Shown piece by piece: positions 53,648 to 63,997 of a stretch of 64,000 nucleotides of DNA. The DNA lies in NCBI GenBank assembly GCA_022564195.1, contig JADFLW010000003.1, forward strand, positions 12,747-76,746, in the 5' to 3' direction. How positions within the stretch are numbered: the first letter of the stretch is position 1; each line of letters begins with the position of its first letter. Below the pieces are notes generated by a model that saw only the letters and a list, made by a program, of their open reading frames with translations, was not told the DNA's origin and made no database searches. Position numbers and translations under genes: made by a program. The DNA is from Patescibacteria group bacterium (GTDB lineage Bacteria; Patescibacteriota; Microgenomatia; UBA1400; Chisholmbacteraceae).

Positions 53648-53679
53648 CTCCTTTCCTAGTGGGCCTCAGGCCCAACCGG
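53648..53679 (-). promoter_or_regulatory. Leader hairpin + SD motif (copy 1, before the Rho-like gene)
   Basis: RNA sense: CGGUU-GGGCC-UGA-GGCCC-ACUA-GGAAAGGAG-8 nt-GUG. Confidence 0.6.
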
Positions 53680-53720
53680 TCAGTCCGTTTTCCAGTCATT
53701 GCTGGATTGGGAACAGGCTA

Positions 53721-53750
53721 CCCTCTAGTAGTGGGCCTCTGGTCCAAAAG
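53721..53750 (-). promoter_or_regulatory. Leader hairpin motif (extra upstream copy, imperfect)
   Basis: RNA sense: UUGGACC-AGA-GGCCC-ACUACUAGAGGG, with one mismatch in the stem. Confidence 0.45.
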
Positions 53751-53996
53751 GAAATCTCTAGAGAGCATTCCGTTCCCAATCCGTACGCGTTCTTATTTGG
53801 TTGTCAAGGAGCTAATGCGAAGCATAAGCTCCGCACCCGCCAATATTTTTCGAGGGAGTATACGGCTGACTAAGCAGTAAGCCGACCATCGATAAAATAT
53901 GGTGGGAAAGTGCTATCCCGCTCAAGCGGGATCCAAATGCCCGCCCCAACAAACGCCAAATGTCTGTTTGCAGGCGTCTTATAAATTGTCAATTTT

Positions 53997-54063
53997 CCTC
54001 TGTTTCGCCCTCCGTAGCTTTAGCGTAGGGGGCTCATCAGTCAGCCTTTGGCTGAAACAGAAA
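53997..54063 (-). ncRNA. Hammerhead ribozyme motif, type III (HHR-C)
   Basis: RNA sense: UUUCUGU-U|UCAGCC-AAA-GGCUGA-CUGAUGA-GCCCCCUACGCUAAAGCUACGGAGGGC-GAAA-CAGAGG. Full catalytic core. Stems I and II are closed and stem III is open. Confidence 0.8.
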
Positions 54064-54225
54064 ACAACACAACAAAATCAAACTACAACCCCCTTCACAC
54101 AAACAAACAAACAAACAATTCATCAACCCCGCAAATGGGATTGAGATGTCTGCCGAATTTCGGTGAAGAGAGGGTGAGGGAGGGATCCCAAACTTCGGGA
54201 TCCCATTCCCATGTCAACGTCCCTC

Positions 54226-54576
54226 TTAGGACCGCCACGGTCTTCGGCCTATCCATTCGGCTGTTGGGAGGTCATTCCCGCGCCATCGTCCGTTGGATCG
54301 CAATGGATCCTCATTGACGACCTGACGTAAAAGCCCAATGGAAAGGGCGATCGCGCCGATGATGCCAACGAAAACGGCCAGGAAGCTCGAAACCAAACGC
54401 GAGAGTAGTGGAATGGACTCCACCAAATCTCGCTGAGCCGACGTTAACTCGCCGCCCGACGGAAAGCCAAATGCCGCAAACACATGAAGCGCGAATATGC
54501 CTCCCAGGAAAGGTAGGAGCAAATGAGGCCGATGAAAAGTGCTAAATGGACTCGGAAGTACCAGTCCGAAAACCAT
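54226..54576 (-). CDS. Small two-TM membrane protein (gene model uncertain)
   Basis: 116 aa. SD-like GAGGAG lies 9 nt before the ATG. Two hydrophobic spans (LLLPFLGGIFALHVFAAFGF, VSSFLAVFVGIIGAIALSIGLL). Overlaps the alternative model 54444-54677 in another frame. Confidence 0.4.
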   Translation of the reverse strand: MVFGLVLPSPFSTFHRPHLLLPFLGGIFALHVFAAFGFPSGGELTSAQRDLVESIPLLSRLVSSFLAVFVGIIGAIALSIGLLRQVVNEDPLRSNGRWRGNDLPTAEWIGRRPWRS

Positions 54577-61086: not shown

Positions 61087-61242
61087 ACAAACAAGAAGAA
61101 GCGACACTCTCTACCAAAGACAAAAAACCAACAAACCAACCCCGCTACTGGGATTGAAAAGGTTCTTTGCTTGAGCAAAAGAGTGAAGGTGGATAGAGAG
61201 GGTTCAAACATCGAACCCCCTCCTATCACCTGTGCATTCCCA

Positions 61243-61626
61243 CTAGCCATCCTTCCCATCTTGGCGTTTCGCCAACGTCGCTCGGTCCTCTGGACCTTGA
61301 CCACGGGTGGTGAAGATCCGTTGAAGGGTAACGTCCCGCTTCAACAGGGTGTCGAACGGCTTGGCCCGTCTGTTGCTTTTCCTCGCCTCAATCAGATGCG
61401 AGTTCGTCTCCCAAAAGAGGTGTAGGAAAAACAAGCTAACATAGGCCATTGCGATAACGGCACTCACCACCGTGATCAACGGTAAGTCGCCTTCGAGGAG
61501 AAGGCTCATCTCGTTGTACACGAGGAGCAAGTCAGAACCGACCAAGATAAGTAGGACGGCCCGTAACCGCATTGGGTGGGAAGTATCCACAAGCCAGTAG
61601 TGAACTGACCTGACTCGCTCATACAT
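61243..61626 (-). CDS. Small two-TM membrane protein (VirB3-like position)
   Basis: 127 aa. Its start overlaps the upstream stop by 8 nt. Two hydrophobic spans (LRAVLLILVGSDLLLVY, LITVVSAVIAMAYVSLFFLHLF). Confidence 0.5.
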   Translation of the reverse strand: MYERVRSVHYWLVDTSHPMRLRAVLLILVGSDLLLVYNEMSLLLEGDLPLITVVSAVIAMAYVSLFFLHLFWETNSHLIEARKSNRRAKPFDTLLKRDVTLQRIFTTRGQGPEDRATLAKRQDGKDG

Positions 61627-63397
61627 CGCTCACCTCCCGGAGATAGCGCGATGGCCCTTGCCGCTTTCGAGGCTGGGAACGTTGAGCCCGTACTGGACGA
61701 GCCACGTTTTCCTCCATAGGGACATCTGCGGATTGGCGCAGCTGCCGTGTACGCCGACGCTCGTCCACCGATCTCGTCACATGGACTATCGCGCCAGTTG
61801 CCCACTTTGCAGGCCTAAGCTGCGGATTGATTTTGGCAGCGATGTCAGCAGCCGTATCTTGCACTTCAAAGTAGCGAAGCGGAAGCCTTCTCATGCGTTC
61901 CGCAAACCCAGGAGATTCCTCTCGGAAGCCCTCAGGCCGAGCAGACGGATCCCGTAGGATACCAGCCTGTCCGTCGACGGAATCGTCAGCCATCCAAGCA
62001 CTGCCGGGCTGAGAGACAGATCCGCTCACGCGTCCGACTCCCGGTTGACGGAGCGCCCCAGGCTGATCGCCAGTGCGTACCCTTCCGGGAGCTCGAGTAT
62101 CGCTGATACCACCAGCACTTCCTTGAGATGCGGAAGCAGTCGGCCTTCGAAGACGACTCCCGAACTGGAGGGAAACCTTGGTCTCCTCTTCCTTCCGGGA
62201 GAGCGATCTGGATCCAGCTCGCCTGCCGCGATATCGACCGGTCGGACCGGTCGCACGGGAACCTGGGGTTCCCCTCACCGGCCCTCGACGACTTCCTCCT
62301 TTCGCATCGCGCAAGCCACCCAACCTGTCGCCTGGCTTTCCCTTCGTACCAAGAGGTGGGTCCTTGGAAGGACTGCCTTTGTCCGAGGGAGCAGGAGGCA
62401 CCATCGGCCCGGGTGGCGGAAGCCGCGCTTGGCCAGAGCGTTCGTCGCGGAGTCGCGCTTGGCTCGGTCCACCAGTAGGGATTGGCCCTGTAGTAGCGGT
62501 GGCCGTTGCGGTTGTGGTCCGCCGATAGCGTCTCACGTCAACGCCTCGCAGACCAGCGACGCCAGCCGCGTCGAAGCTCCGCAGCGTGCTGCGTCGCCTT
62601 CTGCCTTCTTGCGCTTGCACTGCCTGTCCCTCTGCTTCCTTGAAGGAGGTGACTGGCGCAAACACCAGTGCGATGACCGGCAGTATGACGTAGCAGATGA
62701 GCTGCGTGAGTCCGAGCACCCAGGCATAGAGCCCGATGTTGGCGGTCTGTGTCGAGATTGGTCCTACTTCCAGCGTCGGAGTCCCGCTGACCAGAAACGT
62801 GATCATGCTGAACCCCCAACTGAAAAGCAGCCAGCCGACAACTTGCGCTACCCAAACATTCATGGGTCTCGTGTTACCCACGATCACGGTGGCGAAAATC
62901 GCAACCACGTACGTCAGCAGCATAATGGCCTGAACGTACCGGTGGATCAACGCAACATTGAGGATAACCCCCACCAGCATTGGCGCATTCACGATGTCGG
63001 CGATTGAAGGGCTCGTCAAGCCAAACGCTTCTGCGATCGAAAAGAGGCTGATATCGTCAGGTTGAAGTCGCGACCCGACCAGGGTGAGCGCCGGGATGAC
63101 AGCCCCCACAAACCCTGCCCCGAAGGTGAGGATCTGCCATTTGATGACACCTCCTGTGTCCTGTCTACTTGCCGCCTGCAGCGCCTTGTACGTCGCCAAC
63201 GGCACGAGAATGAGCAGGATGCGAGTCAACCTCCGATATTTCTCAAGATCCGGTTTCAGAAACCAGAGCCCGAGCCACTTCTCGTTGATCGCTCTCAGGA
63301 TATCTCCGATAGGACCGAGAGGTTCCTCACTGCTGCACGCGGCGAGAATCAACCCACCAAGCATCAGCAGCAGGAGAGACAGCGCCTTGCGTTTCAT
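61619..63397 (-). CDS. Lipoprotein-signal polytopic membrane protein with long Arg/Gly/Pro-rich C-terminal tail (VirB6-like position)
   Basis: The signal peptide ends in the lipobox LAAC. About 6-7 TM spans in the first ~250 aa, then ~335 aa of low complexity. Confidence 0.55.
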   Translation of the reverse strand: MKRKALSLLLLMLGGLILAACSSEEPLGPIGDILRAINEKWLGLWFLKPDLEKYRRLTRILLILVPLATYKALQAASRQDTGGVIKWQILTFGAGFVGAVIPALTLVGSRLQPDDISLFSIAEAFGLTSPSIADIVNAPMLVGVILNVALIHRYVQAIMLLTYVVAIFATVIVGNTRPMNVWVAQVVGWLLFSWGFSMITFLVSGTPTLEVGPISTQTANIGLYAWVLGLTQLICYVILPVIALVFAPVTSFKEAEGQAVQAQEGRRRRSTLRSFDAAGVAGLRGVDVRRYRRTTTATATATTGPIPTGGPSQARLRDERSGQARLPPPGPMVPPAPSDKGSPSKDPPLGTKGKPGDRLGGLRDAKGGSRRGPVRGTPGSRATGPTGRYRGRRAGSRSLSRKEEETKVSLQFGSRLRRPTASASQGSAGGISDTRAPGRVRTGDQPGALRQPGVGRVSGSVSQPGSAWMADDSVDGQAGILRDPSARPEGFREESPGFAERMRRLPLRYFEVQDTAADIAAKINPQLRPAKWATGAIVHVTRSVDERRRTRQLRQSADVPMEENVARPVRAQRSQPRKRQGPSRYLREVSDV

Positions 63398-63401
63398 GGC
63401 G

Positions 63402-63956
63402 CTACCGTGGAGCTGCCGGTTCCGCGAACTCCTGAGTGAAATGGTCGATGATGTTCACTCCTCGAGGGGGCAGGAAGCTGTCGAAACCGATCAGTTCACC
63501 CGCGATCCCGATGACGATGATGATCCCGACCATGATCCCGATCCAGGTGCCTATGGGCGAAGGTGCGCCTGCTGCCGTCGGTCTCCTCACGTTTAACGGC
63601 CCGAAGAAGACCGCATAGAGAATAACCAACACACCGGCGACGATGACGTACCAGTGAATTCTCAACAGAAATCTCTCTTCGTCTTCACCTTCCTGCAGCA
63701 AGACGCCCATGAGCAAAATGCCCGTGAACGCCGTTGCCTGCAGACGCGTTCCAGAAATGGGGCCATAGTTACGCTCCCCGATTCTGGCGAGATCGATCCT
63801 CGCTGTCAGCCGCTGAAGCGGTTTCAGCAGAAGGATCGCGATCGTGTAGAGCAAAGCCAACACGATCAACGGGTTGGGCTCAAGCAGAAACTGCACAAGC
63901 CCCGAAAATGGGGTGGAAAGCATCGCCACTCCATGAGCAAAAAGTGTGTCCAACAT
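63402..63956 (-). CDS. Four-TM membrane protein, function unknown
   Basis: 184 aa. ATG lies 6 nt after SD AGGAGAG, and the stop lies 4 nt before the next start. Confidence 0.55.
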   Translation of the reverse strand: MLDTLFAHGVAMLSTPFSGLVQFLLEPNPLIVLALLYTIAILLLKPLQRLTARIDLARIGERNYGPISGTRLQATAFTGILLMGVLLQEGEDEERFLLRIHWYVIVAGVLVILYAVFFGPLNVRRPTAAGAPSPIGTWIGIMVGIIIVIGIAGELIGFDSFLPPRGVNIIDHFTQEFAEPAAPR

Positions 63957-63963
63957 AGTGGAC

Positions 63964-63997
63964 TCTCCTATCTAGGGGTGATTGATTCACCCTCCGG
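63964..63997 (-). promoter_or_regulatory. Leader hairpin + SD motif (copy 5, variant)
   Basis: RNA sense: CCGGA-GGGUGA-AUCAA-UCACCC-CUAGAUAGGAGAG-6 nt-AUG. Confidence 0.5.

Follow-up and report, generated by a model that had tools for sequence, protein, structure and literature searches.

The element considered here is a short RNA hairpin, P3, which stands just ahead of the Shine-Dalgarno (SD) sequence of several genes in a 64,000-nucleotide stretch of contig JADFLW010000003.1 from a Patescibacteria group bacterium (this whole stretch is the window, to which all positions given without a contig name refer). Every gene from 52200 to 64000 is carried on the minus strand, and since the G+C content steps from about 48% to 55-59% directly beyond a tRNA gene at 51497-51569 (plus strand), the segment can be regarded as an integrated island; the tRNA gene itself forms the boundary between host DNA and island. 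An earlier description made from the letters alone (the sequence-only reading) had listed six hairpin copies in this segment, and all six sequences are indeed present, on the minus (coding) strand. They are as follows, with the scores, where available, of the covariance model described below.

53661-53673, minus: P3 hairpin GGGCC-UGA-GGCCC, flanked by CGGUU and ACUAG; SD GGAAAGGAG; GTG start at 53639, Rho paralogue; 38 bits
54698-54710, minus: P3 hairpin UGGCC-AGA-GGCCA; SD GAAGGGAGG; TTG start at 54677; 42 bits
56558-56570, minus: P3 hairpin GGGAC-AGA-GUCCC, followed by ACUAC-GAAGGAG; GTG start at 56537, 540-residue protein; 41 bits
60738-60751, minus: P3 hairpin CGGCC-AAGA-GGCCG, followed by ACUACCCAUU-AGGAGG; ATG start at 60717, 766-residue P-loop protein; 26 bits, copy not used in training
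63976-63992, minus: P3 hairpin (copy 6) GGGUGA-AUCAA-UCACCC, with a 6-bp stem, flanked by CCGGA and CUAGAU; SD AGGAGAG; ATG start at 63956
53733-53745, minus: P3-like hairpin (copy 5) GGACC-AGA-GGCCC, with one mismatch; 34 bits

It is well supported that P3 is the last of three helices (P1, P2 and P3) in a leader cassette of 130-150 nt, repeated before genes that lie behind long spacers. What had been described earlier is therefore a real hairpin, but only the tip of a larger leader that runs from a boxA-like site through P1 and P2 to P3, with hammerhead ribozymes upstream.

The four canonical copies (those that head the list) consist of CGGUU, a 5-bp stem, an AGA-like loop of 3-4 nt, the return strand and ACUA, and for these the flanks are conserved, as had been claimed; both flanks are missing, however, from copy 6. 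Judged from its surroundings, copy 6 is a diverged true homologue of P3, since in L001, a contig that continues the island past the end of the window, a P2 hairpin and the boxA-like 22-mer (which in this leader both fall beyond the window) stand 5' of it, at 9691-9990. Copy 5 is nested in the apical part of P1, in the leader that belongs to the 53639 gene, and has no gene of its own behind it; it is probably a relic of a duplication, and the orthologous leader in a related island (L077) has the same P1 without any nested P3-like copy. The claim that the hairpin always sits 5' of the first SD of a unit accordingly does not hold for this copy. The gene behind the copy at 54698-54710 is ambiguous, being either a 78-residue open reading frame (ORF) with a TTG start or a 116-residue ORF with an SD of its own, and the leader here is truncated to the 3' half of P1, a weak P2 and P3, with no boxA and no hammerhead. 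Translationally coupled genes do lack the hairpin, as had been said. Its presence before every cistron group, on the other hand, is true within the window but not of the element as a whole, because further along the island there is an extra copy before an ORF of only three codons, while other long-spacer genes have different hairpins.

Evidence for the P3 helix

A covariance model was trained on six copies, four from the window and two from contigs that extend the island (L001-L003, which were found through exact-protein look-ups), and the hairpins of the window lineage were aligned with it. The untrained copy at 60732-60758 was recovered by this model at 26 bits (E about 6e-4), and a search of 51 kb of host DNA gave zero matches. 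A strict scan for a perfect stem of at least 5 bp and a loop of 3-6 nt followed by ACTA, when combined with the CGGTT flank, returned the four canonical copies, in the island only and on the coding strand only. As to background, a perfect GC-containing hairpin of at least 5 bp placed 2-12 nt before the SD was seen in none of 41 SD-bearing host ORFs.

The compensatory change in the stem that the sequence-only reading proposed is confirmed: the window lineage provides seven distinct sequences, in which 97% of cells are paired and two of the five pairs have changed on both sides (GC/UA/CG and CG/AU), giving a covariation score of 0.457 as against 0.094 for shuffled alignments (1/500), with slid controls reaching at most 0.21. 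If copies from the related islands are added, there are nine distinct stems, all cells are paired, four of the five pairs have changed on both sides and the score rises to 0.93 as against 0.16 (0/500), figures that must be read with the fact that in this larger alignment the loops are placeholders and the register was set by hand, so that it is biased towards structure. A further instance is provided by an extra leader outside the window in the near-identical strains L001 and L003, which are about 96% identical over it: of some 14 differences in 320 nt, five concentrate in the 13-nt hairpin, and pairing is kept (GGGAC-AUA-GUCCC in L001, UGGCC-AAA-GGCCA in L003). This difference may have come about by compensatory change, or else by conversion from the paralogous 54698 copy. 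Taken as a whole, it is well supported that P3 is a genuine RNA helix.

The leader cassette

In the sense direction the cassette comprises a boxB-like hairpin, a boxA-like 22-mer, a variable stretch, P1, P2, a linker, P3, a gap of 3-12 nt and a long SD (7-9 nt, of the types GAAGGAG, GAAAGGAG and AGGAGG). The linker between P2 and P3 measures 14-19 nt and ends in YCG(G). P2 was located at the following positions.

53691-53706, minus: P2 UCCAG-CAAUGA-CUGGA
54726-54739, minus: weak P2 CGC-CCAAUGAA-GCG
56586-56601, minus: P2 ACGCG-CAACGA-CGCGU
60766-60781, minus: P2 UCGCG-CAAUGA-CGCGA

P2 is the best-supported helix of the leader. Its stem is of 4-5 bp with loops CAAUGA, CAACGA or CAAAGA, and over 11 copies 97.7% of cells are paired, all four pairs have changed on both sides and the covariation score is 1.02 as against 0.26 (0/500), while five of the six bases of the loop (CAAYGA) are invariant. 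P1, which precedes it, is longer and irregular.

53704-53782, minus: P1 of the Rho-paralogue leader, GGAUUGGGAACGG ... CCUGUUCCCAAUCC, enclosing the nested P3-like copy
56600-56648, minus: P1, long irregular hairpin with outer stem GUGGGCUC/GAGCCCAC and inner hairpin CCCGAC-UCCG-UCGGG
60778-60832, minus: P1, long irregular hairpin with outer stem GCGGUUGGCCC/GGGCCAAUCGC and inner hairpin CCCGAC-GUUG-UCGGG

The outer stem of P1 covaries between the copies at 60778-60832 and 56600-56648.

The three long spacers (53640-54225, 56538-56943 and 60718-61242) have an ordered set of modules in common, in which the boxB-like hairpin is preceded, from the 5' side, by a hairpin directly behind the stop codon, a C/U-rich, G-poor tract, a CAAUCCC...GGGGUUG hairpin, a GU-rich stretch CUUGUUGUGUU and a predicted type III hammerhead. 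Some details of this upstream part may be recorded here. A GC-rich hairpin marks the ends of units at 54182-54204, 54777-54807, 56898-56916 and 61192-61227 (minus), and the 20-40 nt next to each of these on its 3' side form the C/U-rich, G-poor tract, for example UCCCUCACCCUCUCUUCACC, which resembles a Rho loading site or the 3' tail of 16S RNA. The hairpin CAAUCCC-NNNNNN-GGGGUUG (54124-54143 and 61137-61156, minus), which comes after the 3' hairpin and before the GU-rich stretch, is also found at L004 9644-9665 and L076 195-216, its sequence being kept across relatives at 46-48% identity.

Each of the long spacers has one predicted hammerhead, which is on the coding strand and about 280-390 nt upstream of P3.

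53993-54066, minus: type III hammerhead, GUU triplet, CUGAUGA...GAAA core; RF00008 37.3 bits, E 4e-5
56778-56858, minus: type III hammerhead, GUC triplet; RF00008 15.2 bits
60996-61086, minus: type III hammerhead, GUU triplet, long stem II; RF00008 20.5 bits

All three have every core base (CUGANGA, GAAA, NUH) and three stems, of 4-10 bp, with stems I and II closed and stem III open; that they score below the RF00008 gathering score of 48.5 is attributable to long inserts in stem II. A fourth is predicted at about L004 9715-9765, likewise below the Rfam gathering threshold. When 51000-64000, and two spacers on their own, were searched against Rfam release 15 at E values up to 10, only noise and Hammerhead_3 were returned, and in the literature no account was found of hammerheads, or of such a leader, in Patescibacteria.

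The boxA-like site

The 22-mer and its diverged form occur in the window at these positions.

53790-53812, minus: diverged boxA-like sequence GCUCCUUGACAACCAAAUAAGAA (counterpart in L077, ACUUUGACAACCAAACAAGA)
56706-56727, minus: boxA-like 22-mer GCACUUUGACAACACAACAAGA
60887-60908, minus: boxA-like 22-mer, with the boxB-like hairpin AUCCCG-ACAUCUCA-UCGGGAU (60910-60930) 5' of it

Outside the window it is present at L001 9691, at L004 9846 and 13730, and in L058-L075. Compared with the boxA and spacer of E. coli rrnG, CAC-UGCUCUUUAACAAUUUA (PMC2724277), the L004 sequence GCUCUUUAACAA agrees with boxA and the start of the spacer at 12 of 12 positions and the window sequence GCACUUUGACAA at 10 of 12. 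On this sequence resemblance the 22-mer can be termed boxA-like, and is a candidate NusB/NusE site. It lies 130-300 nt before the SD, this distance being about 145-150 nt in most leaders and about 290 nt in that of the 63956 gene.

An exact-pattern scan of the JGI metagenomes, in which less than one chance match was expected, yielded 18 loci. At 15 of them the encoded proteins are distantly homologous, with 21-36% identity, to those of the island (766-residue, M23, 592-residue, 540-residue, 142-residue or Rho-like); L067 and L072 were set aside as apparent chance matches, and L064, which gave no protein match, is too short for this comparison. Since the 22-mer is kept while the homologues have diverged to this extent, the RNA motif is better conserved than the proteins of the island. 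A pattern that fits only the L004 variant of the 22-mer gave 36 genome and 17 viral matches, which were rejected as chance, being without supporting features.

The 22-mer has the reverse complement of its 3' half in the GU-rich stretch upstream of the hammerhead, CUUUCUUGUUGUGUU. This stretch is seen at 56856-56866 and 54064-54075 (minus), at about L004 9700 and at L066 3400-3415 and 7005-7020, and in L004 one change appears to be compensatory (GUGG with CCAC). The two could form a long-range helix of the leader-trailer type, or an RNase III site.

P3 outside the window

Further copies, whose absence from related islands the sequence-only reading had named as counter-evidence, are in fact present there. 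In its continuation in L001-L003 the island has one more canonical copy, which in L001 has behind its SD only an ORF of three codons (TTG AAT ACC TAA), 130 nt ahead of the real gene. This arrangement lies at L001 2676-2735 (and again at 6240-6300). A comparable juxtaposition is seen in the window at 53625-53660, where P3 and the SD are followed by TTG TGT TGA, and this overlaps the Rho paralogue at its GTG start. For long-spacer genes in L001 and in L004 (which, with L077, represents relatives at 46-48% protein identity, L077 being at 48%), an automated scan found an SD-proximal hairpin at seven of nine, including a different hairpin at L001 6409; at the remaining two (L001 2848 and 9329) a hairpin was found by eye only, and short-spacer genes carry none.

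The L004 stems are GGGGG/CCCCC (then ACUAC), UGGGUU/AACCCA and GUGAC/GUCAC, and L077 has GCGGC-UUA-GCCGC in a leader that also contains boxA, P1 and P2 (loop CAAAGA). Among 12 SD-proximal copies, 11 are perfect helices of 5-6 bp with energies of -5 to -8.6 kcal/mol, the other being the 3-bp helix L004_d (-0.5 kcal/mol), and the hairpin is part of the minimum free energy fold in nine of 10 leaders. Loops vary (UGA, AGA, AAGA, AUCAA, ACAUA, UUA), as between lineages do stems and most flanks; what stays is the stability and the distance to the SD (3-12 nt, mostly 5-8). Also kept are the polarity of the stem, G-rich on its 5' side and C-rich on its 3' side, and YCG(G) directly before P3, which is found in all 12 copies.

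In more distant relatives boxA and its GU-rich partner are kept, together with a domain like P1 and a hairpin like P2 (loops AAUCA or AAUAAG), after which the leader goes straight to the sequence ACGAAAGGAG, which is followed by a short ORF before the real gene. No P3 was found in these distant relatives. Since they keep the rest of the leader, P3 is best regarded as a lineage-specific addition; and part of the "ACUAC" to which attention was drawn earlier appears, from this sequence comparison, to belong to an extended SD box ACGAAAGGAG common to the whole superfamily. The three-helix leader as such is dispensable, as follows from L076 (a 48% relative with a Rho-paralogue gene, positions 1-450), which keeps the 3' and CAAUCCC hairpins, the GU-rich stretch and a boxA-like site and lacks both the hammerhead and P1-P3, its start codon coming about 25 nt past boxA.

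Candidate functions of P3

Ten leaders were refolded with either strand of P3 complemented, with both strands swapped and with P3 deleted, and the probability of being unpaired from SD to start codon was essentially unchanged throughout. This gives no support to a simple insulator or switch working at equilibrium, and an insulator acting by thermodynamic exposure of the SD was ruled out on the same result. It might still be supposed that P3 forms part of an SD-sequestering switch (a thermometer, a riboswitch or an anti-SD closing helix), and pairing of the SD with a distal pyrimidine stretch is predicted in three leaders (those of the 60717 and 53639 genes, and L001_F). However, the SD is outside the P3 stem in every copy, mutation of P3 leaves the pairing of the SD as it was, and duplexes between the region before P1 and the SD are no better in energy than shuffles in seven of nine leaders, so that such a switch is scarcely credible. 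The distal closing helix (P0) was likewise rejected as a general feature, being significant in L001_F only (p about 0.03, 500 shuffles). Translational control, one of three roles suggested by the sequence-only reading, thus loses its SD-sequestering version; a binding site, the second, is weakened for P3, where loop and stem are free to vary, but becomes more plausible for P2 with its invariant CAAYGA; and a 5' stabiliser, the third, would fit best.

Several other identities were tried and discarded. P3 does not qualify as a lambda-type boxB, as it comes 130-150 nt or more past boxA, has variable loops and in one copy has no boxA at all; nor is it part of a hammerhead, its flanks being CGGUU and ACUAC with no adjoining CUGANGA or GAAA core. 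An intrinsic terminator or attenuator is excluded by the ACUA that follows the window copies (UUU comes after three L004 copies only). Against a repeat of the repetitive extragenic palindrome or CRISPR kind is that no copy occurs in 51 kb of host DNA and that all copies are in the sense strand, one per leader. The feature expected of an operator of MS2 or thrS type, a conserved loop, is absent from P3 and is found instead in P2, while that expected of a 5' stabiliser, an autonomous stable stem close to a strong SD, is found in P3 itself (3-12 nt from an SD of 7-9 nt).

The explanation we favour, with a probability of roughly 0.35, is that P3 serves as a 5'-protective, ribosome-framing cap for unit mRNAs that are cut from a long transcript. 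The island would be transcribed as long RNAs, made resistant to termination by host Nus factors acting at the boxA sites, and the hammerheads together with cellular RNases would cut these into unit mRNAs. Any cut within the long untranslated leader would expose a 5' end to decay; where processing came near P3, the hairpin (-5 to -8.6 kcal/mol), standing close to a very strong SD, would stop trimming in the 5'-to-3' direction, and P3, with a 30S subunit docked on the GAAAGGAG-type SD behind it, would provide the mRNA with a short head, stable and translatable. We infer that P3 would act through structure and position rather than through sequence, neither hiding the SD nor switching. In favour of a cap is that P3 is confined to genes with a long untranslated leader, and by analogy the P3-SD placed before a mere three-codon ORF in L001, like the ACGAAAGGAG box ahead of a short ORF in distant relatives, resembles a ribosome-docking stabiliser.

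There are nevertheless clear points that weigh against a protective cap. The hammerhead cut would fall about 280-390 nt upstream of P3, and since the body of the ribozyme, the boxB-like hairpin and P1 would all block an exonuclease earlier, P3 could matter only after some further cut. The simplest benefit, an SD kept open, is removed by the lack of any in silico effect of P3 on accessibility. Its absence from L076 and from all the distant relatives makes P3 dispensable for the leader, and the stronger conservation of YCGGUU and ACUA, compared with the linker beside them, within the window lineage hints at recognition by some factor.

That last point leads to the possibility, unlikely in our estimation, that P2 acts with P3 as an operator for some RNA-binding protein working in trans (the Rho paralogue, another island protein or a host factor), which would coordinate translation or Rho-type termination of all the units. 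The invariant loop of P2 on a fully covarying stem, the P2-P3 spacing held to 14-19 nt, the YCG(G) in 12 of 12 copies and the conservation of CGGUU and ACUA, but not of the linker, in the window lineage are all consistent with this, as is the 150-residue N-terminal region without assignment in the island's own Rho paralogue; yet the loop, stem and most flanks of P3 vary freely between lineages, P3 is missing where the Rho paralogue is kept (L058, L066 and L076), and the superfamily-wide ACGAAAGGAG box accounts for part of ACUAC. A more elaborate version, in which an operator of this kind for an island regulator (possibly the Rho paralogue) would be combined with the hammerheads and hijacked Nus factors at boxA in an undescribed, ribozyme-assisted lambda-like programme, must be rated as distinctly doubtful. 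Fixed proximity to the SD (mostly 5-8 nt), restriction to genes that need de novo initiation behind long leaders and the constant strand polarity would also suit an aid to initiation, with the helix docking on the 30S platform or stacking on the duplex of SD and anti-SD, and so providing a clean standby site. Here equilibrium folding gives no gain in accessibility of the SD or start codon from P3, and distant relatives use the same SD box without it, which makes this reading, too, unlikely.

P1 is a long irregular hairpin, and RNase III cuts hairpins of that type. It could be imagined that P3 is simply a structured spacer in a circuit like those of the lambda N leader and suhB, where Nus factors bound at boxA would link the leader to RNA polymerase and keep the first gene from being translated until a cut was made in the leader, for instance by RNase III in P1. 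Precedents for boxA-dependent translational repression exist in lambda nutL-N and suhB (PMC5725501), and the boxA-like site 130-300 nt before the SD, with a highly structured interval, is what such a circuit would have; but the copy at 54698-54710 has P3 and no boxA, and the model gives P3 no special part, so that we consider it improbable as an account of the hairpin. It is very improbable that P3 is a functionless relic of cassette duplication, with copies kept alike by gene conversion. Conversion is suggested by the stem types in common between paralogous copies, there being just four types in the window lineage, of which two are so distributed (GGGAC/GUCCC at 56558 and in L001_F, UGGCC/GGCCA at 54698 and in L003_F), and a degenerate copy does exist at 53733-53745. 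A relic of that sort is hard to reconcile, however, with the perfect helices of 5-6 bp that 11 of the 12 copies near an SD possess, those with unrelated stems in L004 and L077 among them, with a constant position relative to the SD, or with the host background of 0/41.

Proteins of the island and other observations

Apart from an M23 peptidase domain (56944-58407) and one weak P-loop match, the island proteins are nearly all without annotation. Pfam and PHROGs pointed to no integrase in the island genes seen, the interval 51570-52200 lying outside this search. The "Rho-like protein" that had been noted earlier is borne out as a Rho paralogue.

52200-53639, minus: Rho paralogue, 479 residues, the final island gene before the tRNA gene; PF00006 on homologues

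A profile built from three sequences matches Rho structures in the PDB with E = 2e-12, over positions 150-400 and hence the ATPase domain only, and the match is far better to Rho than to type III secretion system or F1 ATPases. An AlphaFold model made from the three-sequence alignment was too poor to use, with a predicted local distance difference test score (pLDDT) of 40, and the profile-to-PDB match was used instead. The N-terminal 150 residues lie outside the profile match; the protein is kept in the distant relatives L058 and L066. For the 766-residue P-loop protein just two clusters were found among 5.8 billion proteins, while pattern and tblastn searches of GTDB genomes, IMG/VR and JGI metagenomes turned up no relative, nor did those of plasmids and phages; a search with the 540-residue protein gave no matches.

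Contig L001 contains a tandem duplication of about 3.5 kb (1-2114 against 3262-5678), comprising genes for proteins of 462, 110, 142 and 64 residues and the next leader. It is absent from L002 and L003, and may be real or an assembly artefact.

In the host DNA a glmS ribozyme was found at 32506-32716 (plus strand; 55.8 bits, with a 56-nt insertion), upstream of glmS at 32824-34605, implying that the host uses ribozyme-triggered decay of mRNA. The GlmS protein encoded there is identical to MCH7951373.1, which is assigned to the Patescibacteria group. The Bacillus glmS logic reportedly depends on 5'-to-3' decay of 5'-OH RNA by RNase J1.

Significance and comparison with known systems

Patescibacteria are uncultured and have tiny genomes, and almost nothing is known of their gene regulation; the interest of the hairpin comes mainly from this context, that is from its host together with the ribozymes, boxA and the Rho paralogue. 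Each island spacer packs several RNA devices, namely predicted hammerheads, a boxA-like Nus site, a three-helix leader and a very strong SD, in an island with a Rho paralogue of its own. Should P3 prove to be a stabiliser or insulator, it would be a natural counterpart of the ribozyme-plus-hairpin insulators of synthetic biology, and a stabiliser would show how a long polycistronic transcript becomes a set of separately stable, separately translated mRNAs. If it were a protein operator, a new family of regulators would have been identified.

Among known elements, those to which the P3-SD unit would come closest in its working are the 5' stabilisers of Gram-positive bacteria (the aprE leader hairpin with its ribosome-binding site, or RBS, ermC, and the cryIIIA STAB-SD GAAAGGAGG), which block 5'-to-3' decay. 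They share with P3 a stable hairpin and/or a very strong SD, P3 being placed 3-12 nt before an SD of the GAAAGGAG type, but theirs are at mapped 5' ends whereas P3 is known from sequence alone and shows no homology to them; moreover P3 closes a leader of 150 to more than 300 nt, downstream of other stable helices. Synthetic insulators of the RiboJ type consist of a hammerhead, a hairpin and an RBS. The likeness, a self-cleaving hammerhead upstream and an autonomous hairpin just before the RBS, is superficial: in RiboJ the ribozyme abuts the hairpin, while here the predicted ribozymes are about 280-390 nt away, one P3 has none, and there is no in silico gain for the SD. In the MS2 and Q-beta coat operators and domain 2 of the thrS operator there is also a short hairpin adjoining the RBS, with repeated use and possible recognition by a protein, but those have a conserved loop or bulge and usually include the SD or AUG, in contrast to P3, whose loop and stem can vary and whose helix does not take in the SD.

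Taken whole, the leader is akin to those of rrn operons and lambda nut. As in the lambda N leader and suhB (PMC5725501), boxA (here boxA-like) lies in the 5' untranslated region and is followed by a structured interval and the SD of the first gene, and, as proposed here, a mobile or island-borne element would be exploiting host Nus factors. In lambda, however, boxB comes 8-10 nt after boxA and binds N, as against 130-150 nt or more between boxA and P3, and the island differs from both in having a cassette repeated before several units and combined with predicted hammerheads, with no N-like protein identified. The rrn antitermination leader (boxB-boxA-boxC; PMC2724277) also has a hairpin directly 5' of its boxA, which the island matches with its boxA-like site and a GU-rich partner nearby; the island context is protein-coding, though, its conserved block is 22 nt long, and the comparison concerns this neighbouring part of the leader rather than P3. 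P3 is thus not a member of any of the families compared, having no homology to them, the wrong distance for boxB and no conserved operator loop. It can be described as a variant of a kind already known, the SD-proximal leader hairpin, in a compact module.

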